A stretch of 64,000 nucleotides of DNA from Acidimicrobiia bacterium (GCA_040902765.1 JBBDWO010000030.1:1598-65597); one strand, 5' to 3'; positions 10,332 through 64,000 are shown, counted from the first letter of the stretch. Made by a program: numbers and translations. Notes: generated from the letters alone by a model not told the origin.

Positions 10332-10395
10332 TCAACGCTCAACGCTCAACGCTCAACGCCTTCACGCTCAACGCTCAACGCTCAACGCTCAACGC
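10332..10395. repeat. (TCAACGC)x4, an 8-nt variant CTTCACGC, then (TCAACGC)x4. The array begins 13 nt upstream of the GNAT start codon.
   Basis: Read directly from the sequence. Confidence 0.9.
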
Positions 10396-10428
10396 CAGAC
10401 TCGTCGAGTACTGCGTTCAGCGTGAAGT

Positions 10429-10535
10429 GTTGAGCGTCTTCTCCTGCGTTGAGCGTTAGGCGTTGAGCGTCTTCTCTGGCGTTGAGCGTTTTCTCCTGCG
10501 TTGAGTGTCTTCTCCTGCGTTGAGCGTTCTTGTCG
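10429..10535. repeat. 19-bp tandem repeat GTTGAGCGTCTTCTCCTGC, about 6 copies (one truncated to 14 nt), in inverted orientation to the upstream TCAACGC array and ending 14 nt before the Nudix start
   Basis: Units at 10429-10447, 10462-10480, 10481-10499, 10500-10518, with variant units between and after. Confidence 0.85.
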
Positions 10536-10548
10536 TATCGTCCTCCCC

Positions 10549-11091: not shown

Positions 11092-11180
11092 TAACGCTCA
11101 ACGCAAGAGAAGACGCTCAACGCCTAACGCTCAACGCCAGATCTGGCGAGTCCTGCGTTGAGCGTTGAGCGTTGAGCGTC
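11092..11180. repeat. TCAACGC-family hairpin element with left units TAACGC, TCAACGC, ...ACGCTCAACGC, CTAACGC, TCAACGC, the loop AGATCTGGCGAGTCCT, and right units (GCGTTGA)x3
   Basis: Read from the sequence. It lies between the convergent Nudix and arsC 3' ends and starts at the Nudix TAG stop. Confidence 0.85.
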
Positions 11181-25663: not shown

Positions 25664-26541
25664 TGGCGATCTTCGTCGACGCCAGCACGCGACTCGTCGT
25701 CCAGGGGCTCACCGGCAGCCAGGGCCGATTCCATGGCTTCCGCAACCGGGACTCGGGGACGCGCCTGGTCGCCGGGGTCACTCCTGGCAAGGGCGGGATG
25801 GATCTCGACGGCGTCCCGATCTTCGACACGGTGTCCCAGGCGGTCGAAGCGACCGGTGCCAACACGTCGATGGTGTTCGTGCCTCCCGCCTTCGCCGCCG
25901 ACGGCATCCTCGAGGCGGCCGACGCCGACGGAATCAACCTGATCGTCGCCATCACCGAGGGCATCCCCGCCCACGACGAGGCCCGGGTGTACAACTACAT
26001 TCGCCAGACCAGCCGGACACCGCTCATCGGACCCAACTGCCCGGGACTCATCTCGCCGGGGAAGGCCAATGTGGGGATCACCCCCCACGAGATCACGCTG
26101 CCGGGCTCGGTCGGCGTGGTGTCGCGCTCGGGGACCCTCACCTACCAGGCGGTCCACGAACTCACGGTGCGCGGCATCGGACAGAGCACCTGTGTTGGCA
26201 TCGGTGGCGATCCGGTTCCGGGCACGTCGTTCGTCGACGTGCTGGAGCGATTCGAGGAGGACTCCGAGACCGAGGTGATCGTGATGATCGGCGAGATCGG
26301 CGGCAGCGCCGAGGAGGAAGCAGCGCTGTTCATCCGTGACCACGTCAGCAAGCCCGTGGTCGGCTACATCGCCGGGGTCACCGCACCCGCGGGCAAGAAG
26401 ATGGGCCACGCCGGAGCGATCATCTCGGGTTCCTCCGGCACCGCCGCCGCCAAGCAAGAGGCGCTGCGCGCCGCCGGAGTCACCGTCGTCGACGACCCCA
26501 GCGCCATAGGCGAAGCAGTAGGAATAGCGATTGGCAATTAG
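25663..26541 (+). CDS. sucD: succinate--CoA ligase alpha subunit
   Basis: The CoA-binding region and the catalytic-His region (GHAGAIISG). Its ATG overlaps the sucC TGA. The last six codons (GIAIGN) and the TAG stop are encoded by heptamer units. Confidence 0.9.
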
Positions 26542-26615
26542 CAATTAGCAATTGGCAAGAGTCGGAGTGCCGGGTTCTTGGACTCTTGCTGGTAGCTGGT
26601 AGCTGGTGGCTGGCG
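26523..26615. repeat. AATAGCG, ATTGGCA, (ATTAGCA)x2, ATTGGCA overlapping the sucD 3' end; then a 9-bp hairpin GCAAGAGTC-(16 nt)-GACTCTTGC; then (GCTGGTA)x2, GCTGGTG, GCTGGCG
   Basis: Read from the sequence. Confidence 0.85.
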
Positions 26616-26634
26616 ACTGGGGCCCGGTGACTTC

Positions 26635-27303
26635 TTGTATCGTCGCCTCGTGCCCGCGCCTCCCGACTCCTGGCCCTCTTCGGGTCCTCTCGTCATCGGT
26701 ATCGCTGGGGGATCCGGGTCCGGCAAGACCACCATCGCCGAGGCCATCGTCGAGGCGATCGGTCCCGAGGACGTCTCACTCATCCAGCACGACGCCTACT
26801 ACCGCGACCTGAGTCATCTTCCGCTGGAGGAGCGGTCTCGGATCAACTACGACCACCCCGATTCGCTGGAGACCGACCTCCTCGTCGAGCATCTGACGGC
26901 CCTTCGGGCGGGCGGCGCCATCGACCGTCCTGTCTATGACTTCACGGTGCATAACCGTTCACCGGAGACGGTTCGGGTCGAGCCGTCGACCGTGGTCGTG
27001 GTCGAGGGGATCGTGGTCCTCTGGGAGCCACGACTCCGGGAACTGATGGATCTGAAGGTGTACATCGACACCGATGCCGACCTGCGGATCGTGCGCCGCC
27101 TGCAGCGTGACATCGAGGAACGGGGCCGCACCTTCGAGTCGGTCCGTACGCAATACCTGGAGACGGTCCGTCCGATGCACCTGCAGTTCGTGGAGCCGTC
27201 GAAGCGCTACGCCGACATGATCATCCCTGAGGGATACAACGTGGGGGCCGTGTCGACGGTGATCAGCATGATCCGCGACGTGATGACGCGACGCCTTGCC
27301 TGA
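26635..27303 (+). CDS. udk: uridine kinase
   Basis: VIGIAGGSGSGKTT P-loop with PRK/Udk-family layout. The start, TTG 26635 or GTG 26650, is uncertain. Confidence 0.75.
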   Translation: MYRRLVPAPPDSWPSSGPLVIGIAGGSGSGKTTIAEAIVEAIGPEDVSLIQHDAYYRDLSHLPLEERSRINYDHPDSLETDLLVEHLTALRAGGAIDRPVYDFTVHNRSPETVRVEPSTVVVVEGIVVLWEPRLRELMDLKVYIDTDADLRIVRRLQRDIEERGRTFESVRTQYLETVRPMHLQFVEPSKRYADMIIPEGYNVGAVSTVISMIRDVMTRRLA

Positions 27304-28207: not shown

Positions 28208-28291
28208 CGAGTAGGAAGTACCAAGTACCAGGTACCAAGTACCTCTCTGGCTAATTGCCAATTGCGACTTCCCAATAGCGACTTGCGATAA
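28189..28291. repeat. 14 consecutive heptamer units: (AGTAGCG)x3, AGTAGGA, (AGTACCA)x2, GGTACCA, AGTACCT, then GCTAATT, GCCAATT, GCGACTT, CCCAATA, GCGACTT, GCGATAA. The element overlaps the folD 3' end and ends about 30 nt before icd.
   Basis: Read from the sequence. Confidence 0.85.
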
Positions 28292-30614: not shown

Positions 30615-31577
30615 TCATCCGGTAGCGGCTCCGGCGAGCTCTAGCTCCGACTGTCTGGCGGCTTCGGCCTGACGGCGGGCCCGGTTCTGAGCAGAGACCT
30701 CATCCCGTTCGCCAGCCCAGAGTCCGATGGCGGCCATGGTGGCGAGAGCGCCGCCCATCCAGGCCATGAAGACGCCCCAGGTGATCTGCACTTCCCGCAG
30801 GTCGGCCGCCGCCTCCCAGGTGGCGAACTGCATGCCGGTGAGCTGGATCCGTACGGCCGTCGCCATCGAGATTGCGACCAGCATGATCGCTGCTGCCCCG
30901 ATGATGATCATGCGGTACGGGCCGAGCTGCGGCGGGTTGCGGAACACGACCACTCCTCCGACGAGGGCGAGCCCTACGGCCAGCACCAGCCAGGTAGGGC
31001 GCTGAAGGCCGCCCACGGTCGCGCCGATGACGACGTAGATCATCAGGGGGAGTGCCACGAGCCAGACTCCCAGGCGTACCCATCGGCGGTAGCGATCCGC
31101 CACCTTGGATCCGACCGTGCGCATCGCCGTAGCCGCCACGAGGGCCGCACCGACCATCGACAGCACAACCACGCCGACGCCCCCGACCGTGGTCGGGCGG
31201 GCATCCCCGACGAAGGTGGCGGCGACGGCACCGACGATGAGGCCTCCGGTGATGGTCAGGGTCCCGACTCGGTTGGCCTTGATCTTCCCCATGACCAAGA
31301 GGATGGCGAGCACCGCGAGGATGGCGGCAGACAGCAGGATCACGAGGCCCTGCGGCGTTTCGTAGCCCCGCAGCGACCACGGAGTGATGATGAACCGGTC
31401 CCCCCGCCAGCGGGGCTGGACCCGGGCGTATTCCCAGAGGGTCGACTGGCTGAGGACGAGCAGGCCGAACAGCAGCACCGTCAGCATCCGCTTCTTCAGC
31501 ACGATCACCAGGCCGTCTCCGGGGTCGTCCAAACTGGAACGGCACTGTACACGGCCGTGGCCGGCCGCGTCCTTCAA
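30615..31577 (-). CDS. hypothetical polytopic membrane protein
   Basis: A long ORF with roughly 8 hydrophobic helices. It has codon-usage-consistent GC3 and no recognisable domain. The start is uncertain, with TTG 31577 or ATG 31487 possible. Confidence 0.4.
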   Translation of the reverse strand: MKDAAGHGRVQCRSSLDDPGDGLVIVLKKRMLTVLLFGLLVLSQSTLWEYARVQPRWRGDRFIITPWSLRGYETPQGLVILLSAAILAVLAILLVMGKIKANRVGTLTITGGLIVGAVAATFVGDARPTTVGGVGVVVLSMVGAALVAATAMRTVGSKVADRYRRWVRLGVWLVALPLMIYVVIGATVGGLQRPTWLVLAVGLALVGGVVVFRNPPQLGPYRMIIIGAAAIMLVAISMATAVRIQLTGMQFATWEAAADLREVQITWGVFMAWMGGALATMAAIGLWAGERDEVSAQNRARRQAEAARQSELELAGAATG

Positions 31578-31672: not shown

Positions 31673-31957
31673 ATGAACAAGAAGGAGCTCGGCGACGCCG
31701 TCGCCGCAGCACTCGATGGCCAGAAGACCATGGGCGGCGCCGCCGTCGATGCCGTCTTCGCTGCCGTGGCCGGTGCCCTCGCCAAGGGGGACAAGGTCTC
31801 GATCGCAGGATTCGGATCCTTCGAGGTCCGCCAGCGTGCGGCGCGTATGGGACGCAATCCGCGTACCGGACAGCCTGTGCACATCAAGGCGGCGAAGGCG
31901 CCTGCCTTCAAGGCGGCCAAGGCGCTGAAGGAAGCGGTCAACGCGTTCAACCCGTAA
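31673..31957 (+). CDS. hup: DNA-binding protein HU
   Basis: MNKKELGDAVA...GFGSFEVRQRAARMGRNPRTGQPVHIKA is an HU-family protein. AAGGAGG lies 8 nt upstream of ATG 31673. Confidence 0.85.
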   Translation: MNKKELGDAVAAALDGQKTMGGAAVDAVFAAVAGALAKGDKVSIAGFGSFEVRQRAARMGRNPRTGQPVHIKAAKAPAFKAAKALKEAVNAFNP

Positions 31958-31974
31958 CCCACGGTCGACCAAGG

Positions 31975-32016
31975 AAATGTGTGAGGGGCGCCCAACCGGG
32001 CGCCCCTCACACATTT
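31975..32016. terminator. strong bidirectional terminator candidate with a perfect 19-bp stem AAATGTGTGAGGGGCGCCC / GGGCGCCCCTCACACATTT and a 4-nt loop
   Basis: Read from the sequence. It lies between the convergent hup and SCP2 genes. Confidence 0.6.
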
Positions 32017-32017
32017 C

Positions 32018-32115
32018 AGCTATTAGCCATTAGCTATTGGCTTTTAGCCAGAACCGGGCGAAGGCCTCGCGAGCGTCTGGCCAATTGCTAATAGCCAATA
32101 GCCAATAGCCAATAG
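32018..32115. repeat. inverted heptamer arrays with AGCTATT, AGCCATT, AGCTATT, GGCTTTT, a 29-nt spacer, then CCAATTG, CTAATAG, (CCAATAG)x3
   Basis: Read from the sequence. The spacer contains CGCGAG and GCGTCTGG, which are also present in the 58814-58848 spacer. Confidence 0.85.
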
Positions 32116-32119
32116 CTCT

Positions 32120-32506
32120 CTAGTACTCCACGTCCACCGTGGATGCGGCATTGGCGAAGTCGGTCATGATCCGCTGATGCTGGAGCAGCTTGCCCATGTT
32201 CCCCGTGATCTTGATCTTGCCGGTCATGAACGCCATCTGCGTGTTGAGTTCCCCCTTGCTGATGGCGACGGCCGTCTGGTAGGTGCTACTGATGGTGGCA
32301 TCGGCGGAGTCGCTGCCACCGGAAGCGACTGCGACCGACCCATTGTCGAGGGCCAGCGTGTATGCCAACAGGCGATCTTCTGGTGGGTCGGTCACCTCGA
32401 ACGAGAGGGTGAGGTCGACGCCACCGATGGCGGAGGTGAATCCCTCATGCCCCGACAGTGCGGTCTCGAGGGCCTCGAGCCACTCATCGGTCAGAAACTT
32501 GGCCAC
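32120..32506 (-). CDS. SCP2 (sterol carrier protein-2-like) domain protein
   Basis: The SCP2 fold motif ...MTGKIKITGNMGKLLQH. The start GTG at 32506 has AAGGAG 8 nt upstream. The longer ORF-table version would overlap the dapA-like gene by 59 nt. Confidence 0.55.
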   Translation of the reverse strand: MAKFLTDEWLEALETALSGHEGFTSAIGGVDLTLSFEVTDPPEDRLLAYTLALDNGSVAVASGGSDSADATISSTYQTAVAISKGELNTQMAFMTGKIKITGNMGKLLQHQRIMTDFANAASTVDVEY

Positions 32507-37021: not shown

Positions 37022-37214
37022 CGAGTAGCGAGAGAACGCTCAACGCTTAACGCTCAACGCCAGAGTTCGTCGGTCTTGCGTTGAGCGTTAAGCGTCATTC
37101 CAGCTACCAGCTACCGATTGATCAGTGGCCAGTGGCGAGTAGGACGCTCAACGCTCAACGCTCAACGCCAGAGGTTGTCGCGTCTTGCGTTGAGGCGTTA
37201 AGCGTTAAGCGTGA
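37019..37214. repeat. composite element containing (TTAGCGAG)(TAGCGAG); TCAACGC hairpin element copy 1 (37034-37096, loop AGAGTTCGTCGGTCTT); (CAGCTAC)x2 and (CAGTGGC)x2 arrays; and TCAACGC hairpin element copy 2 (37143-37214, loop AGAGGTTGTCGCGTCTT)
   Basis: Read from the sequence. Confidence 0.85.
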
Positions 37215-37244
37215 TTCCCACCTATCGAGGCCGCTTTCTCCCCA

Positions 37245-37300: not shown

Positions 37301-37342
37301 ATGGGATTAATCACATCAATGTAATTCACGAGGTGAGGCCAC

Positions 37343-37624
37343 ATGCTGGATGATCTGCGGCAAGCCCTGTTGGGGACCGGGGACGATCTCGCCTGGCAGG
37401 ATCGGGCCAACTGCACCGGTGCCAACGCCGATCTGTTCTTCCCGGAGCGCGGTGCATCGACCCGCACCGCAAAAGCCATCTGTCGCGCCTGCGACGTTCG
37501 CGAGGAGTGCCTCGAGTTCGCCATTACGACCGGCGAGAAGTTCGGCATCTGGGGCGGCATGTCAGAGCGCGAACGCCGCAAGGTCCGTCGCGACCGCCAG
37601 ATAGCGGCGAGACGAGCTTCGTAG
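37343..37624 (+). CDS. whiB: WhiB-family (Wbl) Fe-S transcription regulator
   Basis: Four Cys (C-x..-CRAC..EC) and GIWGG. There is no C-terminal AT-hook, so it is not WhiB7-type. Confidence 0.85.
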   Translation: MLDDLRQALLGTGDDLAWQDRANCTGANADLFFPERGASTRTAKAICRACDVREECLEFAITTGEKFGIWGGMSERERRKVRRDRQIAARRAS

Positions 37625-38703: not shown

Positions 38704-38719
38704 GCCACGGTCTCGTTTC

Positions 38720-38866
38720 CCTCCCCCGTAGGGGGAGGTGGCAGCGGCCGCAGGCCGATGACGGAGGGGGAGGCCAGACGCGTCGCGAGGCCTCCGTACG
38801 GTGCACCCTCCCCCCTCCCCTCCGGTCGCTCTGCTCCCTGCGGTTCTCCCCCCTTCGGGGGGAGAA
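38720..38866. terminator. cluster of C/G-homopolymer hairpins between convergent genes: CCTCCCCC-GTA-GGGGGAGG (38720-38738), long-range GGAGGGGGAGG / CCTCCCCCCTCCCCTCC arms, and TTCTCCCCCC-TTC-GGGGGGAGAA (38844-38866)
   Basis: Read from the sequence. These are plausible U-tract-less actinobacterial terminators for both strands. Confidence 0.4.
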
Positions 38867-38892
38867 AGGAATCCTGTGGGCTGTTGCCCGGC

Positions 38893-39585
38893 TCAGTCCT
38901 CATCGCGAACCGCAACCGACTCGTCCTCCGGGAATGACCCGGTGACGATGAAGGTGACGTGCTCGGCGACGTTGACGGCGTGGTCGGCGATGCGCTCCAT
39001 GTACCGGCCGACGCGGGAGAGTTCGACGGCGACGTCGAATCCGAGGTCCCCCGCCACCCGGGCGATCGCGGCGTAGAAGTCACCGACGAGTTCGTCGACG
39101 ACATCGTCCTCGCGGTCGAGCCGTGCTCCAGCGGCCGGGTCGAGGGTGTCGAAGGCGTCGAGGCCCTTGGTGAACAGATCGATCGATCCCCGACCCATCC
39201 GGGCGATCAGTCCGTGCAGCTCCTCGGGGAGGGTGTAGCCGTCCTGGTGGATCAACCCCTTGGCCATGTTGACCGCCAGGTCGCCGCTGCGTTCGATCTC
39301 GTAGAGGATCCGCGTCACCGACACCAGGAGGCGCAGGTCGCCGGCGACCGGCTGCTGTCGGGCCATGATCTCGAACACCCTGCGCTCCAGACCCGAGTAG
39401 AGCTCGTCGATCTCCCCGTCGGCCTCGACCACGCGGCGCGCCAGATCGACCTGGTTCTCGAGCATCGCCTCGGTGGCGCGTCGGGTGTTCTCGACCACCA
39501 GGGCACCCAGCTGCAGCGTCCCTCGTTTCACGGCTTCGAGGCTCTCGGCGTAGCGTGAGCGGGTCTCGTCGTGTTCCGGGGCCAT
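38893..39585 (-). CDS. phoU: phosphate signalling complex protein PhoU
   Basis: Two PhoU repeats with the conserved E/D-xxxD pattern (...ADGEIDELY..., ...REDDVVDEL...), downstream of pstB. Confidence 0.85.
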   Translation of the reverse strand: MAPEHDETRSRYAESLEAVKRGTLQLGALVVENTRRATEAMLENQVDLARRVVEADGEIDELYSGLERRVFEIMARQQPVAGDLRLLVSVTRILYEIERSGDLAVNMAKGLIHQDGYTLPEELHGLIARMGRGSIDLFTKGLDAFDTLDPAAGARLDREDDVVDELVGDFYAAIARVAGDLGFDVAVELSRVGRYMERIADHAVNVAEHVTFIVTGSFPEDESVAVRDED

Positions 39586-57566: not shown

Positions 57567-57699
57567 CCGTCTGACATGACCGACGGGAGCGGCCCCCAAG
57601 GGCCGCTCCCGTCGCGTCCGGAGCCCTCCGGCTCTTGGCGCCGGCCGGTAGGCGGCAGCCGGTAACCGCAAGCCGCCGGTACCATCGCTTGCGGCGCTG

Positions 57700-58779
57700 A
57701 TGATCGATCCCTCCACGACCCTCACCCCACCCAGGCCAGCGCGGAGCGGCGCGCGCTGGCCGTTCTTCCTCGCCGTCACCTTTCTCGCCGTAGGTATGTC
57801 GGTTGCGTTGCTGTGGCCGGTCAAGGTCCCGTACTTCGCCATGTCTCCCGGCCCCATCGAGCCGGTGGCCGATCTGGTGACCATTAAGGATGCATCGACG
57901 TTCGAACTCGACGGGTCGGCATTCCTCCTCACCGTCGGACTCAAGGAGGTCAACGCCTTCGAGTGGTTGGAGGCGCGGTTCTTCGATCCGCAGGTCGACC
58001 TGATCCCGCGCGAGGCGGTGCGACCGTCGGGCGTGAGCCGAGAGGAGTTGACCCGCACCAATCTCCAGGCGATGGACGCCTCGATCGACACGGCCGTCTT
58101 CGTGGCGCTCGACCGAGCCGGATACGAGGTCGGTTTCACTGGCTCGGGGGTGGAGGTACTCCAGATCGTCGAGGGTTCGCCCGCGGAGGGGGTGCTCCTC
58201 CTCGGGGACCGAATCACCGAGATCGCCGGCACCGCGGTGGTCACCGAAACCGACGCCGCCGCCGTGATCCGATCGTTCGGTATCGGCGACACCATCACCC
58301 TGTCGGGCACTCGCGGCAGCGAACCGCTGAAAGTGGAAATAACCCTGGTGCCGCACACCGAGCTCCCCGACACCGCGATGGTGGGAGTCCTGCTGAGCAC
58401 CCTCGACCTGGAGATGGTCCTGCCATTCGACGTCCGGATCGACTCTCGGAACATCGGTGGACCGTCTGCCGGTCTCATTTATGCGATCACGCTGCTCGAC
58501 CTGCTCACCGAGGAGGACCTCCTCAAGGGCTACCGGGTGGCGGCCACCGGCAGCATTCACTTCGACGAGACCGTTGGTTCGATCGGCGGCGTCCGCCAGA
58601 AGATCTACGCAGCCCGTGCCCTCGGCGTCGACATCGTCTTCGTGCCCACCGCCAACTATGAGGCGGCGCTGACCGCTGAGGGGGATGGGGTCGTCATCGT
58701 CCCGGTCGACACCCTCCAGGATGCCCTCGACCACCTCGCTGCCCTGGAACCCAAGGCCCAGCGCCTGGCAGCCAATTAG
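57700..58779 (+). CDS. membrane-anchored PDZ-domain Lon-like (S16) serine peptidase (YlbL / Rv3194c-like)
   Basis: N-terminal TM helix, PDZ domain (VLQIVEGSPAEG) and Lon proteolytic-domain motif (IGGPSAGLIYAITLLD ... K). The TAG stop is the first unit of a heptamer array. Confidence 0.65.
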   Translation: MIDPSTTLTPPRPARSGARWPFFLAVTFLAVGMSVALLWPVKVPYFAMSPGPIEPVADLVTIKDASTFELDGSAFLLTVGLKEVNAFEWLEARFFDPQVDLIPREAVRPSGVSREELTRTNLQAMDASIDTAVFVALDRAGYEVGFTGSGVEVLQIVEGSPAEGVLLLGDRITEIAGTAVVTETDAAAVIRSFGIGDTITLSGTRGSEPLKVEITLVPHTELPDTAMVGVLLSTLDLEMVLPFDVRIDSRNIGGPSAGLIYAITLLDLLTEEDLLKGYRVAATGSIHFDETVGSIGGVRQKIYAARALGVDIVFVPTANYEAALTAEGDGVVIVPVDTLQDALDHLAALEPKAQRLAAN

Positions 58780-58880
58780 CTTTTGGCTATTAGTAGTTAG
58801 CGATTAGCCAGATTCGCCCTGACGCCCCGCGAGTGCTCCTGGCGTCTGGCCAATTGCCAATAGCTAATAGCCAATAGCTG
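58772..58880. repeat. inverted heptamer arrays with CCAATTA, GCTTTTG, GCTATTA, GTAGTTA, GCGATTA, GCCAGAT; a 35-nt spacer containing CGCGAG and GCGTCTGG; then GCCAATT, GCCAATA, GCTAATA, GCCAATA
   Basis: Read from the sequence. It belongs to the same sub-family as 32018-32115. Confidence 0.85.
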
Positions 58881-58902
58881 ATTCGTTGTATCGTCAGGGG
58901 CC

Positions 58903-60579
58903 ATGGCCGACGACGAACCAACGCTCAGTCGCGCGCCCGACGACCTCGGTCCGGCGACGCTGTCAACTCGTGGCGTTCCGACCGCGAGGCGCGGCTACGA
59001 GAAGAAGTCAGTGGATGCCCTGGTCGCCATCTCGGTGGAGCGGTGGGCCGAGCTGGAGCGTCGGTACCGGTTGCTCATGGACGAAGTGGACAAGGTGGGC
59101 GGTGCCGACCACCTGGTGCGTGACCTCACGGCGATCGGCGACGAAGTCGGCCGCATTCTCGAGGCGGCCAACGACGCCGCCACCGCTCTTCGCGAGCGTG
59201 CCCGCAACGATGCCGAGCGGGTTCGTACCCAGGCGCGGCAGAAGGCGGACAAGGCGACCAGCGAAGCCGACGACGCCGCGGAGCGGGCGCTCGCCGATGC
59301 CGAAGCGGCGGCTTTCGAGGTTCGACAGGCGGCCTGGGAGCAAGGGGTGGCCCTGGTCGACGGCGCCGCCACGCGGGCGACGCAGCTCGTCACCGAGGCA
59401 CGAGACGAGCTGCTGAAGTTCCGATCCGAGGGGGAGCGGGAGTCGCATCGCCGGGTCGCGGCGGCCCGGAAGGACACCGAAGACATGGTGAGGGCGGCGC
59501 GGGTGGAGGCGGAGCACCACATCGCCCGCGCTCGGATGCTCGCTGCCGAGATCCTCGAGCGAGCCGAGCTGGGTTTCGATGGGGACCTCGATGCCACCGA
59601 GCGCCGCCGGAAGGCGGTGCTCACCGACCTGGAGCTCCTCGAAGCCGAACGCTCCATCGCCGAGGTGACCGTGCTGCCCGCCGAGCCCGCCCCGGATCCA
59701 GGCTCGCTCCCGGAGCCGGTGGCCCCCGTCCACCTCGGCGACGAGTCGGGCCCCGACCCCCGCGCCGACTTCGGTGAGTCGCTGATGGCCGAGGTCGAGC
59801 AGATCCGTCGGGACGGGGAGACATCGTCCGCGCCGGGACCCGCCGACCGGGGGGCCGAGCCACGGACCCGCCGGCCCGAGCTCGGCGAGATCGGATCGTT
59901 GTTCGAAGCCCTGCGCTCGACGGCGGAGCACCAGCTGGGCTCCGGGGAGCAGTCGGGCGACGACCCGCTCGCCGTGCGGGATCGGAGACTGATGGGACTC
60001 CACAACGCGGCGTTGCGGGATGTCAAGCGCCGCATCGCCGAACTCCAGGATCGGGCGATCGAGGGGCTTGAGCAGGGCGAGTGGTCTCCGGCGGCGGAGG
60101 CCATCGGGTCAGACCTCACCGCGCTCCTGGAGCCGTTCCTGGCACGGGCTTCTTCGGCGGGCGCCGACGAGGCGCGCCAGACCACCGGTGTCGATCCGGT
60201 GATCCCCAAGGCGGGGCGGGCTCGATCGATGGTGGGCACGATGGCGGGGGAGCTCGGGAGCCAGCTGCGCGCCGCTCTCTCCCGAGGTGGCGCCGCCGCC
60301 GAGCGGATCACCGCGATCCGGTCGGTGCTGCGTACCTGGCGGGTGGACGACGCCGAGCGATGGATCGCTTCGATCCTCATCGCCGCCTTCAACGACGCGA
60401 TGATTGTCTCGCTCGAAGCCGGTGGCTTCGATCGTCTTCAGGGTCTCTCGTCGGGTGTGGGGTGCACCGATTGCCTCGGTGCCGATGGGGCGGTGTGGGA
60501 GCTGGCCGATCCACCGGCGGACAAGCGGGTGCCCCCTGCCGACGCCAACTGCCGCTGCGGCGTGGTGGTGGCCAAGTAG
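58903..60579 (+). CDS. DivIVA-domain protein with an extended coiled-coil and a Cys-containing C-terminal domain (possible Phage_Mu_F-like NCRC motif)
   Basis: The N-terminal ...RGYEKKSVDALVAISVERWAELERRY matches the DivIVA domain signature (GY-x2-x-VD-x-FL). About 250 aa are Ala/Glu/Arg-rich heptad-like sequence. The C-terminus GCTDCLGADGAVWELADPP...PPADANCRCGVVV resembles the terminal motif of SPP1 gp7 / Mu gpF domains. This C-terminal call is from recall only. Confidence 0.5.
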   Translation: MADDEPTLSRAPDDLGPATLSTRGVPTARRGYEKKSVDALVAISVERWAELERRYRLLMDEVDKVGGADHLVRDLTAIGDEVGRILEAANDAATALRERARNDAERVRTQARQKADKATSEADDAAERALADAEAAAFEVRQAAWEQGVALVDGAATRATQLVTEARDELLKFRSEGERESHRRVAAARKDTEDMVRAARVEAEHHIARARMLAAEILERAELGFDGDLDATERRRKAVLTDLELLEAERSIAEVTVLPAEPAPDPGSLPEPVAPVHLGDESGPDPRADFGESLMAEVEQIRRDGETSSAPGPADRGAEPRTRRPELGEIGSLFEALRSTAEHQLGSGEQSGDDPLAVRDRRLMGLHNAALRDVKRRIAELQDRAIEGLEQGEWSPAAEAIGSDLTALLEPFLARASSAGADEARQTTGVDPVIPKAGRARSMVGTMAGELGSQLRAALSRGGAAAERITAIRSVLRTWRVDDAERWIASILIAAFNDAMIVSLEAGGFDRLQGLSSGVGCTDCLGADGAVWELADPPADKRVPPADANCRCGVVVAK

Positions 60580-60683
60580 GTTCGCGATTCGCGAGTCGCA
60601 ATTCGCGATTCGCAGGACCGAGCCAACGCTGGCGTGGGTGGATCGAGCGCCTCTTGGCGAATAGCGAATCGCCAATCGCGAAT
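60580..60683. repeat. inverted heptamer arrays with GTTCGCG, ATTCGCG, AGTCGCA, ATTCGCG, ATTCGCA immediately after the TAG stop, a 39-nt spacer, then GGCGAAT, AGCGAAT, CGCCAAT, CGCGAAT
   Basis: Read from the sequence. Confidence 0.85.
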
Positions 60684-60737
60684 TGCGGCTTTACCCGATG
60701 CCAGCCTCATCCCAGGCTCCCCTAAAGTGCATCTCTC

Positions 60738-63638
60738 ATGATCGAACGCGACCCGATGCCTTCCCCGTTCGGGAGACCGTCACCCCGCCGGCGGTTCACC
60801 CTGACCATCCTCGGTATCGCCTTCGCGGTGCTGCTCTCCCTGCGGGGGATCGCCACGTTGTGGACCGACTACCTGTGGTTCGACTCGATGGGTTACGGGC
60901 CGGTGTGGACCACGCTGTTGTTCAACCGGGTGGTGCTCGTCATCGTGGCATCGGTCGTCGCGTTCACTCTGCTGTATCTGAACCTCGTCCTCGCCGACCG
61001 CCTCGGACCTCGCCGGCTGCTGATGGCGGGGAGCCCGGACGAGGAGATCATCGAACGCTTTCAGGAGTGGGTGTCGGCGAGGGTGCGACGGTTCCGGCTC
61101 ATGGTGTCGGGCATTCTCGGGATCCTCCTCGGCCTCGGCGCCGCTGGCTGGTGGGAGCACTGGCTCATGTACAGCAACCGGCAGTCCTTCGGCAGGACCG
61201 ACCCGCTGTTCGGCAACGACATCGGGTTCTACGTGTTTCAGGTCCCCTTTCTTCGGGACCTGTTCGGATGGGGCTTCCAGTTCGTCCTGGTGACGACCAT
61301 CGTGGTGGCGGTCCTCCACTATCTCAACGGCGGCATCCAGTTCCAGGCCCGAACACAGCAGGTGGCACCGGGGGTGAAGGTCCATCTCTCGGTTCTCCTG
61401 GCCATCGTGGCGATTCTCAAGGCGGTCGGGTATTGGCTGGGTCGCTTCGACCTGCTCTACAGCGACCGCGGCTCGGTGTTCGGCGCCACCTACACCGACG
61501 TCAATGCCCAACTGCCCGCGCTCAACCTGCTGATCGGCATCTCCCTGCTCGCCGCAGTGCTGCTGCTGGTCAACATGAGGATCCGGGGTTGGACGCTGCC
61601 CGCGGCCGCCGTCGGGCTGTGGTTGGTGACCTCTATCGCTCTCGGTGGCCTGTGGCCCGCCGCCATCCAGCGGTTCTCGGTAGAGCCCGACGAGATCAAC
61701 AAGGAGTTGCCGTTCGTAGGGCGCAACATCGAGTTCACCCGCGCCGCCTACGACCTAGAGGAGATCGCGTCGGTGAGGTATTCGGCGTCGGATCAACTCG
61801 ACGCCGATGACCTCGCGGAGAACGCGGGCACCGTGTCCAATGTCCGGCTCTGGGATCCGCAGGTGCTCCTGGTCACCTATCGCCAGCTCCAGGAGCTTCG
61901 CCCCTTCTATCAGTTCACCGATGTCGACGTGGATCGCTATCTGGTCGACGGGGAGCTGCGACAGGTGATGCTGGCGTCGCGGGAGTTGGACGACGAGCGG
62001 CTGCCGCAGACCGGATGGGTCAACCAGCATCTCGTGTTCACGCACGGCTACGGGGCGGTGGTGAGTCCGACCAACGAGGTGACCGACGAGGGCCAGCCGG
62101 ACTTCATGGTCAAGGACATCACCCCGGGACCTGACGTTCCCGAAGCCCTTCGGATCGACCAGCCGAGGATCTACTTCGGGGACTCGCAGCCGTCGGTTCC
62201 TTTCGTAATCGTCGGGACCAACGAGCGCGAAGTCGACTTCCCGGTGGAGATCGGCGAGGGTGCCGAGACCGTCGCCTTCAACACCTATGACGGGACCGGG
62301 GGCATCGAGGTCGGCGGCATTTTCCGTCGCGCCGCCTTCGCTCTGCGCTACGCCGACATCAACGTGTTGATCTCGGGCCAGCTGCGCAGCGATAGCAAGT
62401 TGCTGATGGAGCGCACGGTCCGGGGCATCGTCACCAAGGCGGCGCCGTTCCTCAGCCCGGACGCGGACCCATACCTGGTGGTGCTCGACGGGCGCCTCCT
62501 GTGGGTCCAGGACATGTACACCACGACCGACCGGTACCCGTACTCGACGCTCGCTGGCGACCCCGGTTCCTCAGCCGCCAGGGAAGCGGCAACAAGTCGA
62601 CTCAATGTCCGATCCGGACTGCCCTCCGACTTCAACTACATCCGCAACTCGGTCAAGGCGACCATCGACGCCTACGACGGCACGCTGACCTTTTACACGA
62701 TGGACGACGAGGATCCGATCCTCGGTGCGTGGCGCAGCCTGTTCCCCGACCTCTTCCAGCCCCTGTCGGAGATGCCCGATGGACTCACTGAGCACCTGCG
62801 GTATCCGGAGGACTTGTTCCGGGTTCAGTCCGACCTGTTAACCCGGTATCACATGACCGACTCCCGGGTTTTCATCAACAACGGTGACCCGTGGGAGATC
62901 GCCCGCAATCCGGCGACGACGCCACCCGAGGCCACCCGCGGCCAGTTCGAAGCCGGTAATCGGCCGATGGCCCCGTACTACCTGCTCATGCAGCTGCCTG
63001 GCGACGATGATCTCTCCTATCTGATCCTCCAGCCGTTCACCGCGGCTACGCGGCCCAACATGGTGTCGTTCCTGGTGGCCAAGTCGTCGTTGGCGGACTA
63101 TGGCGACATGATCAGCTTCGAGCTGCCCCGCGACTCGTTCGTCGACGGTCCGGGCCAGGTGGGGGCGCGCATCAATCAGAACCCGGAGATCTCGCGGGAG
63201 TTCACGCTGCTCGGCCAGCAGGGTTCGCAGGTGATCCAGGGCAACATGCTCGTGGTGCCGATCGAGGAATCGGTCGTTTACTTCCAGCCGGTGTATCTCG
63301 CCGCTCGCGGCACGGGCACCGGCAACGACATCACTGCCCTCCCGGAGTTCAAGTTCGCCATTGTCGTATTCGGCGACACGATCGTGATGCGCGAGTCCCT
63401 CGCCGAGGCACTGATGGCCGTGTTCGGTGGTTCTACCGTAGATCCGGACGATCCGGAGCTCCCGGAGGAGATCCTCGAGGCGGTCGCCGAGCTGATGTCC
63501 CGGGCCGAGCAGGCATTTGAGCGCGCCGATCTGGCGCTGCGCGATGCCGACCTGGCCGAGTTCCAGCGTCAGGTGGCCATCGCCCGCAGCCTGATCGCCC
63601 AGGCGAACCGGCTGATCGACGAGGCCGTCAGCGAGTAG
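60738..63638 (+). CDS. UPF0182-family large polytopic membrane protein (Rv3193c-like)
   Basis: Length of 966 aa, multiple N-terminal TM helices (TILGIAFAVLLSLRGIATLWTDYLWFDSMGY) and a large extracytoplasmic domain typical of UPF0182. It is adjacent to the Lon-PDZ gene, as in mycobacteria. Confidence 0.65.
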   Translation: MIERDPMPSPFGRPSPRRRFTLTILGIAFAVLLSLRGIATLWTDYLWFDSMGYGPVWTTLLFNRVVLVIVASVVAFTLLYLNLVLADRLGPRRLLMAGSPDEEIIERFQEWVSARVRRFRLMVSGILGILLGLGAAGWWEHWLMYSNRQSFGRTDPLFGNDIGFYVFQVPFLRDLFGWGFQFVLVTTIVVAVLHYLNGGIQFQARTQQVAPGVKVHLSVLLAIVAILKAVGYWLGRFDLLYSDRGSVFGATYTDVNAQLPALNLLIGISLLAAVLLLVNMRIRGWTLPAAAVGLWLVTSIALGGLWPAAIQRFSVEPDEINKELPFVGRNIEFTRAAYDLEEIASVRYSASDQLDADDLAENAGTVSNVRLWDPQVLLVTYRQLQELRPFYQFTDVDVDRYLVDGELRQVMLASRELDDERLPQTGWVNQHLVFTHGYGAVVSPTNEVTDEGQPDFMVKDITPGPDVPEALRIDQPRIYFGDSQPSVPFVIVGTNEREVDFPVEIGEGAETVAFNTYDGTGGIEVGGIFRRAAFALRYADINVLISGQLRSDSKLLMERTVRGIVTKAAPFLSPDADPYLVVLDGRLLWVQDMYTTTDRYPYSTLAGDPGSSAAREAATSRLNVRSGLPSDFNYIRNSVKATIDAYDGTLTFYTMDDEDPILGAWRSLFPDLFQPLSEMPDGLTEHLRYPEDLFRVQSDLLTRYHMTDSRVFINNGDPWEIARNPATTPPEATRGQFEAGNRPMAPYYLLMQLPGDDDLSYLILQPFTAATRPNMVSFLVAKSSLADYGDMISFELPRDSFVDGPGQVGARINQNPEISREFTLLGQQGSQVIQGNMLVVPIEESVVYFQPVYLAARGTGTGNDITALPEFKFAIVVFGDTIVMRESLAEALMAVFGGSTVDPDDPELPEEILEAVAELMSRAEQAFERADLALRDADLAEFQRQVAIARSLIAQANRLIDEAVSE

Positions 63639-63815
63639 ATCGCGACCGGTTCATTGCCAGATCGGATTCGCTTGAACCCGGGTCGTTGCCAGGTTGGGTC
63701 TCGAGTTCCGATCATCGAAGGCCAGATGCCGACAGACGCGGGGACCGCTTCGGATGGCGGTCGATTCGCCCACCGCACCGCCCGGGTGATGCGCGACGCG
63801 AGGGCCGAGGCTTCT

Positions 63816-63850
63816 CCGGTAGCCGGTAGCCGGTAGCCGGTGGCCGGTAG
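63816..63850. repeat. (CCGGTAG)x3, CCGGTGG, CCGGTAG, with a further CCCGGTAGCC at 63865-63874
   Basis: Read from the sequence. It lies upstream of a partial ORF. Confidence 0.85.
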
Positions 63851-63881
63851 CTGGGCCGCTCGTTCCCGGTAGCCTGCCGCC

Positions 63882-64000
63882 ATGGCCGACCTGACCCTGG
63901 CTGCCTCCTGGTATCGCTCTCGGGATGTGTTCGACGCCGAGCGGATTGGCGTGTGGGGCTGTGAGTGGCTGGTGTTCGCCCCGGGTGCCAGGCTCGACGC
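63882..64000 (+). CDS. 5' fragment of an unidentified protein (MADLTLAASWYRSRDVFDAERIGVWGCEWLVFAPGARLD...), possibly a Rieske-type oxygenase N-terminus
   Basis: An open frame from ATG 63882 to the window edge. The product guess is weak. Confidence 0.2.
   Translation, partial: MADLTLAASWYRSRDVFDAERIGVWGCEWLVFAPGARLD

Follow-up and report, generated by a model that had tools for sequence, protein, structure and literature searches.

The two paired heptamer arrays described here, element 1 between the hup and SCP2 genes and element 2 between a Lon-PDZ gene and a DivIVA-like gene, belong to a class of intergenic hairpins that is genome-wide in this Acidimicrobiia lineage, at fixed places behind genes. 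With a probability of roughly 60%, we read them as selected stem-loops of RNA 3' ends, whose arms would be driven by slippage and whose likeness to each other would come from a shared architecture plus occasional exchange. The architecture of the class consists of a conserved GCCAGA/TCTGGC stem (loosened elsewhere to GCMRGA/TCYKGC), a GC-rich loop of ~10 to 35 nt, and arms of tandem 7-nt units; in relatives diverged by ~10%, the arms differ in copy number and even in unit sequence. All coordinates refer to the window, that is, the whole 64-kb stretch of an Acidimicrobiia MAG (~67% GC) that was analyzed.

Both elements are imperfect hairpins of ~100 nt with inversely complementary arms, the left one made of degenerate GCTATTR-type heptamers and the right one of GCYAATW heptamers, around a GC-rich loop of 23 nt in element 1 and 32 nt in element 2. 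Element 1 (32019-32116, its parts given without strand) is flanked by hup (Bac_DNA_binding) and SCP2, two convergent genes. Its left arm at 32019-32046, four degenerate heptamers (GCTATTA, GCCATTA, GCTATTG, and GCTTTTA), pairs in the folds with the right arm at 32082-32116 (CAATTGC and TAATAGC, then CAATAGC three times), and TRF assigns period 7 to both. Between them, the inner half-stems GCCAGA (32047-32052) and TCTGGC (32076-32081), read from the sequence, enclose the 23-nt loop ACCGGGCGAAGGCCTCGCGAGCG (32053-32075); this whole segment, 32047-32081, is what the first-pass annotation had called the spacer. The SCP2 stop codon (32120-32122, minus strand) is 3 nt from the end of the right arm. 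The deposited SCP2 start is later than that of the open reading frame (ORF) called here (128 aa versus 158).

Element 2 (58771-58878, plus strand) repeats this layout. A left arm of degenerate heptamers recognized by sequence and fold (58771-58806), which contains the Lon-PDZ stop codon TAG (58777-58779), is followed by the GCCAGA half-stem (58807-58812), the 32-nt loop TTCGCCCTGACGCCCCGCGAGTGCTCCTGGCG (58813-58844), the TCTGGC half-stem (58845-58850), and a right arm of CAATTGC, CAATAGC, TAATAGC, and CAATAGC (58851-58878, sequence and TRF). Over 57613-64000, a stretch that includes element 2, the window is identical to a Logan contig (L121) that was assembled independently. The initial description of two such elements, at ~32018-32115 and 58772-58880, thus holds in its arms, spacer, and units as read from the sequence, and the corresponding TRF period-7 rows are 32018-32048, 32080-32116, and 58849-58878.

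These two elements are not special within the window, where they belong to the same class as many other arrays and hairpins. Thirty period-7 arrays (823 nt) were found versus 0.1 expected from shuffles, and period 7 is the sole over-represented one, the other periods from 4 to 12 giving 0 to 1 array each. Most array bases (725/823, 88%) fall outside called genes, and of the 30 spacers that are 40 nt or longer, 20 contain arrays, all seven convergent ones among them. TRF and our own scan together give ~30 to 40 period-7 arrays of many units, among them CGCGATT, AACGCTC, AGTTGCC, GCTACCG, CGAGTAG, AAGTACC, and GGCAGAG. Many are inverted pairs that fold into long hairpins, some lie in divergent, promoter-side spacers, and some are single, with no partner. 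As in heptanucleotide long simple sequence repeats (LSSRs), 7-nt copies stand head to tail beyond chance, and close relatives differ in how many they have. Only three sites match the degenerate three-unit pattern GCYAATWGCYAATWGCYAATWGC, namely 26534-26556 (minus), 32080-32116, and 58849-58878, with 0 expected. Two related unit sets had also been reported, and both are present: ATTAGCA/ATTGGCA units overlap the sucD stop, since the array at 26527-26558 covers the TAG at 26539-26541, which lies inside the left arm of a sister hairpin; and a short GCTAATT/GCCAATT array with TCTG before it lies at 28250-28291 (plus strand), with two units at 28250-28263. The L128 ortholog of the latter has about ten GCCAATT/GCGAATT/GCGAATA units.

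The sequence shared by the two spacers was examined as the proposed signature of a propagated family. As had been noted, both spacers contain CGCGAG and GCGTCTGG, and the elements have in common an exact 16-mer, GCGTCTGGCCAATTGC, which occurs nowhere else in the window; at up to three mismatches it has 4 matches in the window versus 0.54 expected. The two motifs overlap by one G in element 1 and are separated by 9 nt in element 2. TCTGGC, with GCCAGA opposite, is the inner stem that closes the arms of both elements. In its loosened form, GC[CA][AG]GA ... TC[CT][GT]GC, this stem is found 17 times versus 6.75 expected (maximum of 14 in 200 shuffles), and 11 of these 17 matches lie within heptamer hairpins of four unit types, including AACGCTC hairpins (at 10394, 11103, 11136, 11650, 37059, 37167, and 37678), a CGCGATT hairpin (21068), and an ATTGGCA hairpin (26555). 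Since the loosened stem also closes hairpins of other units, the TCTGG in GCGTCTGG is a matter of architecture and not a family marker. For the remainder after removal of TCTGG (CGCGAG plus GCG), the local alignment of loop 1 with loop 2 gives p ~0.08 against shuffled loops, a similarity that is not significant, and neither CGCGAG nor the GCG before TCTGG is present in any ortholog of element 1. Furthermore, when aligned to L125, element 1 has CGCGAG on the 3' side of a GC(Y)TC block, and element 2 has it on the 5' side of TGCTCC; with the hexamer on opposite sides of the GCTCC block, it is probably not homologous between the elements, even if the loops are. The shared spacer motif is therefore not supported as a family signature.

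Comparison of orthologous spacers is the decisive evidence against a recent insertion of element 1. The relatives compared at the hup/SCP2 locus were L125 and four contigs (L128 to L131) found through SCP2 homologs with 87 to 91% amino acid identity; nucleotide identity to the window is ~87 to 92% for L125, L128, and L129 and ~79 to 87% for L130 and L131. L125 carries the ortholog of element 1 in a syntenic position, at 87 to 90% nucleotide identity. All six spacers, counting that of the window, keep the compact hairpin behind hup and TCTGGC, and five of the six have the second, long hairpin, closed by GCCAGA (GCTAGA in L131), L130 being the one that lacks it. Every unit at this locus consists of GC and five variable bases. 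The left and right arms are made, respectively, of GCTATTR and GCCAATW in the window and L125, of GCTATTC, GCGATTC and GCGAATY in L128, of GCRATGC and GCGCATY in L131, and of GCTAACA and TGTGAGC in L129; in L130 the left arm is lost, and the right arm consists of TGTSAGC. The right arm is built of 10 units in L125, compared with 5 in the window. The loop of element 1 can still be aligned with those of its orthologs but changes fast, being only ~50% identical to that of L125, the mean column identity of the aligned region being 82%. At position 2375-2550 of L130, a compact perfect GC hairpin, GCGGCCGAGC-TTT-GCTCGGCCGC, adjoins the SCP2 stop, as if replacing the lost hairpin.

Two other spacers behave similarly. 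Between icd and mdh, the window has GCGAATT (3.4 units), L125 has GCGAATY (at least 8), L128 has AAGTACC, and L130 has CACGTAG/GCGACGT; between DHDPS and sdhC, the window has GGCAGAG/CTCTGCC, L128 has AAGTACC, and L130 has an AACGCTY hairpin. Because the same spacer holds different heptamers according to lineage, the unit "families" are states of a fixed locus and not lineages of a mobile element. The units appear to be drawn from a vocabulary shared across the clade and to be interchangeable at fixed loci, and element 1, judged from these comparisons, appears to be an old, locus-fixed, structurally selected hairpin and not a recently propagated copy.

Covariation was counted over the inner 27 pairs of the five long hup/SCP2 hairpins, anchored by hand on the inner stem and joined by an artificial loop; across hairpins in general, arm and loop lengths vary too much for one alignment. 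In 87.4% of the cells the bases pair, versus 28 to 38% when the partner is slid by 1 to 3 columns. Both sides have changed in 11 of the 27 pairs, and none of 500 shuffles reached any of the five measures, with the proviso that the arm units are internally repeated in these five sequences, so that the pair changes cannot be counted as separate events. GC returns at 7-position intervals, without exception, in each arm of all five. Thus, both arms change together and pairing is kept.

Elements 1 and 2 fold as long hairpins on both strands (z of -5.4 to -6.9), with none of 200 shuffles equaling them. Element 2 folds equally well on the plus and minus strands, and element 1 gives -57.9 kcal/mol on the minus strand (SCP2-sense RNA) versus -46.5 kcal/mol on the plus strand. 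The SCP2-sense strand is the better fold in four of the five hairpin-forming hup/SCP2 spacers (the window and four relatives). On that strand, the inner 27 bp of these hairpins contain 8 G.U versus 5 A.C pairs, a count that is not decisive between RNA and DNA. The sister hairpin at the sucD/udk junction (26527-26617, plus strand) has a left arm of GCAATTR units, the inner stem GCAAGAGTC/GACTCTTGC, and a right arm of TGGTAGC units. Its GCAATTA-type and TGGTAGC arms pair solely through G.U, and the predicted energy of -47.3 kcal/mol for the plus (sense) RNA falls to -23.9 for the minus strand and to -27.4 when G.U is disallowed. A good fold on the plus-strand RNA only, by way of G.U, suggests that pairing at this site takes place at the RNA level.

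The start of the hairpins coincides with the upstream gene's stop codon or is at most 3 nt away from it. Neither element 1 nor element 2 is followed by a U-tract, so that neither has the GC-rich stem and subsequent U-tract of a canonical intrinsic terminator, and terminator-like sites are absent at 31800-32300 and 58600-59100. No Rfam match at the gathering threshold was obtained in the window; in E-value mode there were sub-threshold matches only, to miRNA precursors and one sRNA (STnc320), that is, to generic hairpins. A scan for consensus promoters returned nothing usable. Separate from element 1, a perfect 19-bp GC-rich hairpin lies directly after hup (31975-32016, without strand), with short T-runs on each side; it has undergone compensatory changes and yet is kept in all orthologs (GTGTGAGGGGCGCCC, GCGTGAGGGGCGCC, and GAGTGAAGGCGCC). 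The terminator scan made no U-tract terminator call for it, and we consider it likely, from its sequence and setting, to be a bidirectional terminator of the convergent hup/SCP2 pair. Stem-loop terminators without a U-tract are known in Actinobacteria as compact GC-rich stems directly after the stop codon. The elements resemble them in having a long stem after the stop and no U-run, and the hup hairpin is compact as they are; unlike elements 1 and 2, they are not stems of 100 nt built from repeats.

Beyond the hup/SCP2 locus, a metagenome scan with the pattern GCCAGA, a gap of 10 to 40 nt, and TCTGGCCAATWGCYAATWGC picked out four high-GC loci. One of them, L125, is the ortholog of element 1 treated above; two more, L124 and L126, are further hairpins that have the arms and the GCCAGA/TCTGGCC stem of elements 1 and 2, although their loops are unrelated, and the last, L127, has the right arm only. 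The search for further copies, on which the proposed second propagated family was to stand or fall, therefore did find them in related metagenomic Acidimicrobiia (L124, L125, and L126). Loop 2 is similar to the loops found at the hup locus in L125 and L128 (p ~0.004 each, these two not being mutually independent), with GACGCCCCGCGAGTGCTCCTGG aligned to GACCCGCCGAAAGTG--CCTGG, and ten other loops compared with it in forward orientation gave p >0.1. The minus strand carries a third copy of the inner module, ACCGTACGGAGGCCTCGCGACGCGTCTGGCC, at 38772-38802, where it is part of a hairpin whose 7-mer arms are G/C-rich. Loop 1 with its right stem half (32053-32082) matches it at 27/31 positions with one gap, which is the best match in the window, with a score reached by none of 400 shuffled queries. 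Toward its own orthologs, loop 1 gives p of 0.2 to 0.4 and is less alike than to 38772-38802; being closer to a paralogous site than to its orthologs, it suggests conversion.

The surroundings of this third copy are themselves repeated elsewhere. The 69 nt adjoining it (38719-38787) recur at 94% identity at a non-syntenic site of L128 (8416-8484), and another 62-nt part of the spacer 38705-38895 recurs at 87% in L134 (2999-3060). This spacer, between a 306-aa ORF and PhoU, contains the G/C-rich hairpins CCCTCCCCC..GGGGGAGG and GGAGGCC..GGCCTCC, and the orthologous spacer of L129 has a GTATTTG/CAAATAC heptamer hairpin instead. Its sequence looks like a genuinely dispersed short element, and some copying between loci is likely on these alignments. 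That a few units come back at many loci is also not predicted by purely independent microsatellite growth. In GTDB contigs, the degenerate GCYAATW pattern finds arrays at at least 120 loci of many phyla; the matches listed include cyanobacteria, Acidobacteriota, Gemmatimonadota, Bacteroidota, and others, and the source lineage is absent among them. Nine of the 123 arrays listed have an inverted partner, and in these the order is an ATTGGC-type arm, the loop, and a GCCAAT-type arm, the swapped order never appearing among the matches listed.

Signs of transposition were looked for at the copies themselves. The flanks, whose inspection for short direct duplications had been advised, show none around element 1 (TTTCA|..|TCTCT), element 2 (TGGCA|..|TGATT), L124 (GACCA|..|TGCCC), or L126 (CAGTA|..|GGGGC), and none of the ten ORFs scanned within the 64-kb window is a transposase. 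For element 2, the comparison was restricted to relatives with a 69 to 77% identical Lon-PDZ protein, and of their Lon/DivIVA spacers, that of L122 is free of arrays, that of L123 has direct arrays built from other units, and that of L133 forms another hairpin. Relatives of this type are too diverged to define an empty site for element 2.

It is important to consider how these hairpins would arise and persist. In the reading that we prefer, the arms would grow and turn over by replication slippage, 7 nt being a slippage-prone period, and their complementarity would be kept by selection or by one arm being copied from the other. Once transcribed, the hairpin could act as a factor-independent 3'-end stem-loop that would terminate transcription, block 3' exonucleases, or insulate neighboring transcription units; we infer this termination or stabilization role from position and structure only. 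The resemblance between elements 1 and 2 would then reflect their shared architecture and occasional exchange between loci, by ectopic gene conversion or copying of the inner module, and not transposition. Arrays are also found in divergent spacers and as unpaired singles, and consequently a 3'-end role cannot explain all of them. Moreover, slippage by itself does not account for a small vocabulary of units that recurs at different loci and in different lineages. A more far-reaching possibility, which we hold to be unlikely, is a self-renewing system in which the inner module (GCCAGA, loop, and TCTGGC) would be copied or converted between sites and both arms would be rebuilt from the clade-wide 7-nt vocabulary on a template, for example through strand-switch or hairpin-primed synthesis or through ectopic conversion from array to array. 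If true, it would mean concerted, compensatory evolution of long RNA stems at most transcription-unit ends and a way of making and maintaining terminator-like structures that has not been described for bacteria.

The family interpretation of the first-pass annotation was sound in that arms and inner stem are alike beyond chance, further copies exist, and some loops match; it is the mobile element that the data do not favor. A MITE- or REPIN-like family, in which a transposase encoded elsewhere would copy the whole unit of arms and conserved spacer into further intergenic positions, would account for the common arms, inner stem, and exact 16-mer of elements 1 and 2, for the copies with the same arms and stem in L124 and L126, for the resemblance of loop 2 to the L125 and L128 hup loops, for the match of loop 1 and its stem half to 38772-38802, and for the neighboring 69-nt segment at a non-syntenic L128 site. 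The lack of element 2 in the Lon/DivIVA spacer of relatives with 69 to 77% protein identity would also fit. Nevertheless, we rate it as improbable, since the hup/SCP2 site is occupied in all relatives examined with differing arm units, the L124 and L126 loops are unrelated, CGCGAG is unconserved in orthologs and falls on one side of the GCTCC block in element 1 and on the other in element 2, hairpins of other units close on the loosened inner stem, and neither target-site duplications at the copies examined nor a transposase among the ten scanned ORFs were seen. An equally improbable account takes the heptamer as the most slippage-prone period of the replisome, with functionless arrays and inverted duplications piling up in non-coding DNA. 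It has to accommodate compensatory change of both arms in five hup/SCP2 spacers, an inner stem kept while loop and arms diverge, a hairpin (26527-26617) that pairs through G.U only and on one strand only, the occupation of 7/7 convergent spacers, and the replacement of the L130 hairpin by a compact one. Very fast array turnover with replacement of units at orthologous sites and the presence of arrays in every spacer type, some without a partner, agree with it, as does the heptanucleotide excess in many bacteria that Mrazek 2007, as summarized in PMC4679880, attributed to polymerase slippage.

The least probable of these explanations would place the structure in the DNA, either as cruciform extrusion or as phased sites for nucleoid or replication proteins, with the 7-bp GC periodicity read on the duplex. 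Folding of most elements on both strands with similar energy is compatible with this, and so are the GC recurring every 7 bp on both arms of all five aligned hup/SCP2 sequences and the arrays in promoter-side spacers. However, as DNA, the arms of 26527-26617 would face each other with about a dozen G.T mismatches, the better fold is that of the sense strand in four of the five hairpin-forming hup/SCP2 spacers, and the hairpins abut stop codons and not any recognizable DNA site.

Among known systems, the closest precedent for these hairpins is provided by the inverted heptamer pairs of Xanthomonas, in which GGGAATC heptamers form 70 to 75 convergent array pairs able to form stem-loops (Rehm et al. 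2015, PMC4692102). Those arrays are mostly intergenic and near the upstream ORF, and their position and single or paired type are kept between species while lengths vary (PMC4692102). The likeness lies in complementary convergent arrays within one spacer, at a position that is kept. Xanthomonas, however, uses one G-rich unit genome-wide, with G-quadruplex potential, whereas many units without G-runs (such as GCYAATW and GCTATTR) occur here, together with a conserved inner stem, compensatory unit replacement on both arms, and G.U-dependent pairing suggestive of RNA. In the survey of Mrazek, Guo and Shah 2007, as summarized in PMC4679880 and PMC4692102, heptanucleotides were the most abundant of the long SSRs of 5 to 11 nt, and slippage was proposed. 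The present arrays share with those LSSRs an excess of period 7 in non-coding sequence at high genomic GC. Neither summary of the survey describes paired arms, a common inner stem, or compensatory evolution, all of which are present here.

REP, BIME, and REPIN sequences of Proteobacteria are abundant dispersed intergenic hairpins, often in 3' UTRs, with proposed effects on termination and mRNA decay, and REPs have a fixed palindrome of ~20 to 40 nt, a conserved 5' tetranucleotide, and mobilization by a RAYT transposase (PMC3333891, PMC3116915). The present repeats are likewise dispersed, intergenic, and hairpin forming. In contrast, their arms consist of tandem heptamers that vary, the flanks show no tetranucleotide in common, and the ten ORFs scanned in the 64-kb window include no RAYT. 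Because the arm units differ between copies and between orthologs, there is no fixed palindrome with a flanking tetranucleotide, and in this the elements do not fit the REP or REPIN pattern. Nor do they behave as MITEs, given that duplications are absent at element 1, element 2, L124, and L126 and that the orthologous sites of element 1 are occupied. Cyanobacterial STRR and the TAACTGA repeats of Beggiatoaceae are intergenic tandem heptamers with several unit types per genome and a scattered phylogenetic distribution (PMC4679880). They are intergenic and tandem like ours and have no established function, but they are mostly direct arrays upstream of start codons (PMC4679880), and TAACTGA has one inverted case among 170 sets (PMC4679880), whereas inverted pairs are many here. 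A literature search, incomplete in coverage, did not turn up such hairpins for Acidimicrobiia or for any other Actinobacteria. Three further candidates were considered and rejected: integron attC sites, where AACGCTC fits RYYYAAC/GTTRRRY but the units are tandem, there is no integrase, and the neighbors are housekeeping genes; stop-codon "traps," as several units have no stop codon on either strand; and suppliers of -35 boxes, as many units lack TTG.

In many bacteria, no long simple repeat is as over-represented as the heptamer, and the hup/SCP2 locus offers a clean case of paired heptamer arrays probably selected for pairing, in which genomes within ~10% divergence have different units in both arms, around a 6-bp inner stem that stays in place. 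The same repeat unit in several hairpins need not mean a mobile family, and heptamer arrays can mislead repeat-family annotation. If the 3'-end role is true, a high-GC actinobacterial lineage would be making U-tract-free terminators or stabilizers from slippage-prone DNA, and these would be a tractable model for the concerted evolution of RNA stems.

Several minor observations accompany these results. The NUDIX gene lies between inverted, near-identical copies of a complex AACGCTC segment (10446-10480 and 11103-11137), which include an odd TTAGGCG variant and TCTTCTC, and a higher-order repeat of 19/33 nt, GCGTTGAGCGTCTTCTCCTGC, occupies 10411-10527. Two AACGCTC hairpins only 110 bp apart (37028-37102 and 37136-37218) have near-identical loops and common flanks, GCGAGTAG.. 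on the left and AAGCGTSATTCC on the right, which points to a whole hairpin duplicated locally in tandem. Flanked by AACGCTC hairpins, the minus strand at ~37340-37620 carries a gene that synteny with L129 identifies as WhiB-like. A 320-aa ORF without a Pfam match (30615-31577, minus strand) is also found in L128 to L131, and in L125 it is replaced by 26 bp.

On the promoter side, a GTATCGTC box is found 4 to 8 nt before the start codons of the DivIVA-like gene (58888-58905), udk (26622-26637), and the NUDIX gene (10527-10542). Before the DivIVA-like gene, its TATCGT core (58889-58894) is 10 nt past the right-arm end of element 2 and 8 nt before the ATG at 58903; the box is kept in L123, L132, and L133, and the L122 version is GTAACGTC, with TAACGT in place of TATCGT. 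By its sequence and placement, the box is probably a -10 box driving leaderless mRNAs. Finally, contigs of the clade tend to start or end in or beside heptamer arrays, as in L125 (1-58) and L135 (1-16), the latter starting 16 nt before udk, which suggests that heptamer arrays break short-read assemblies.
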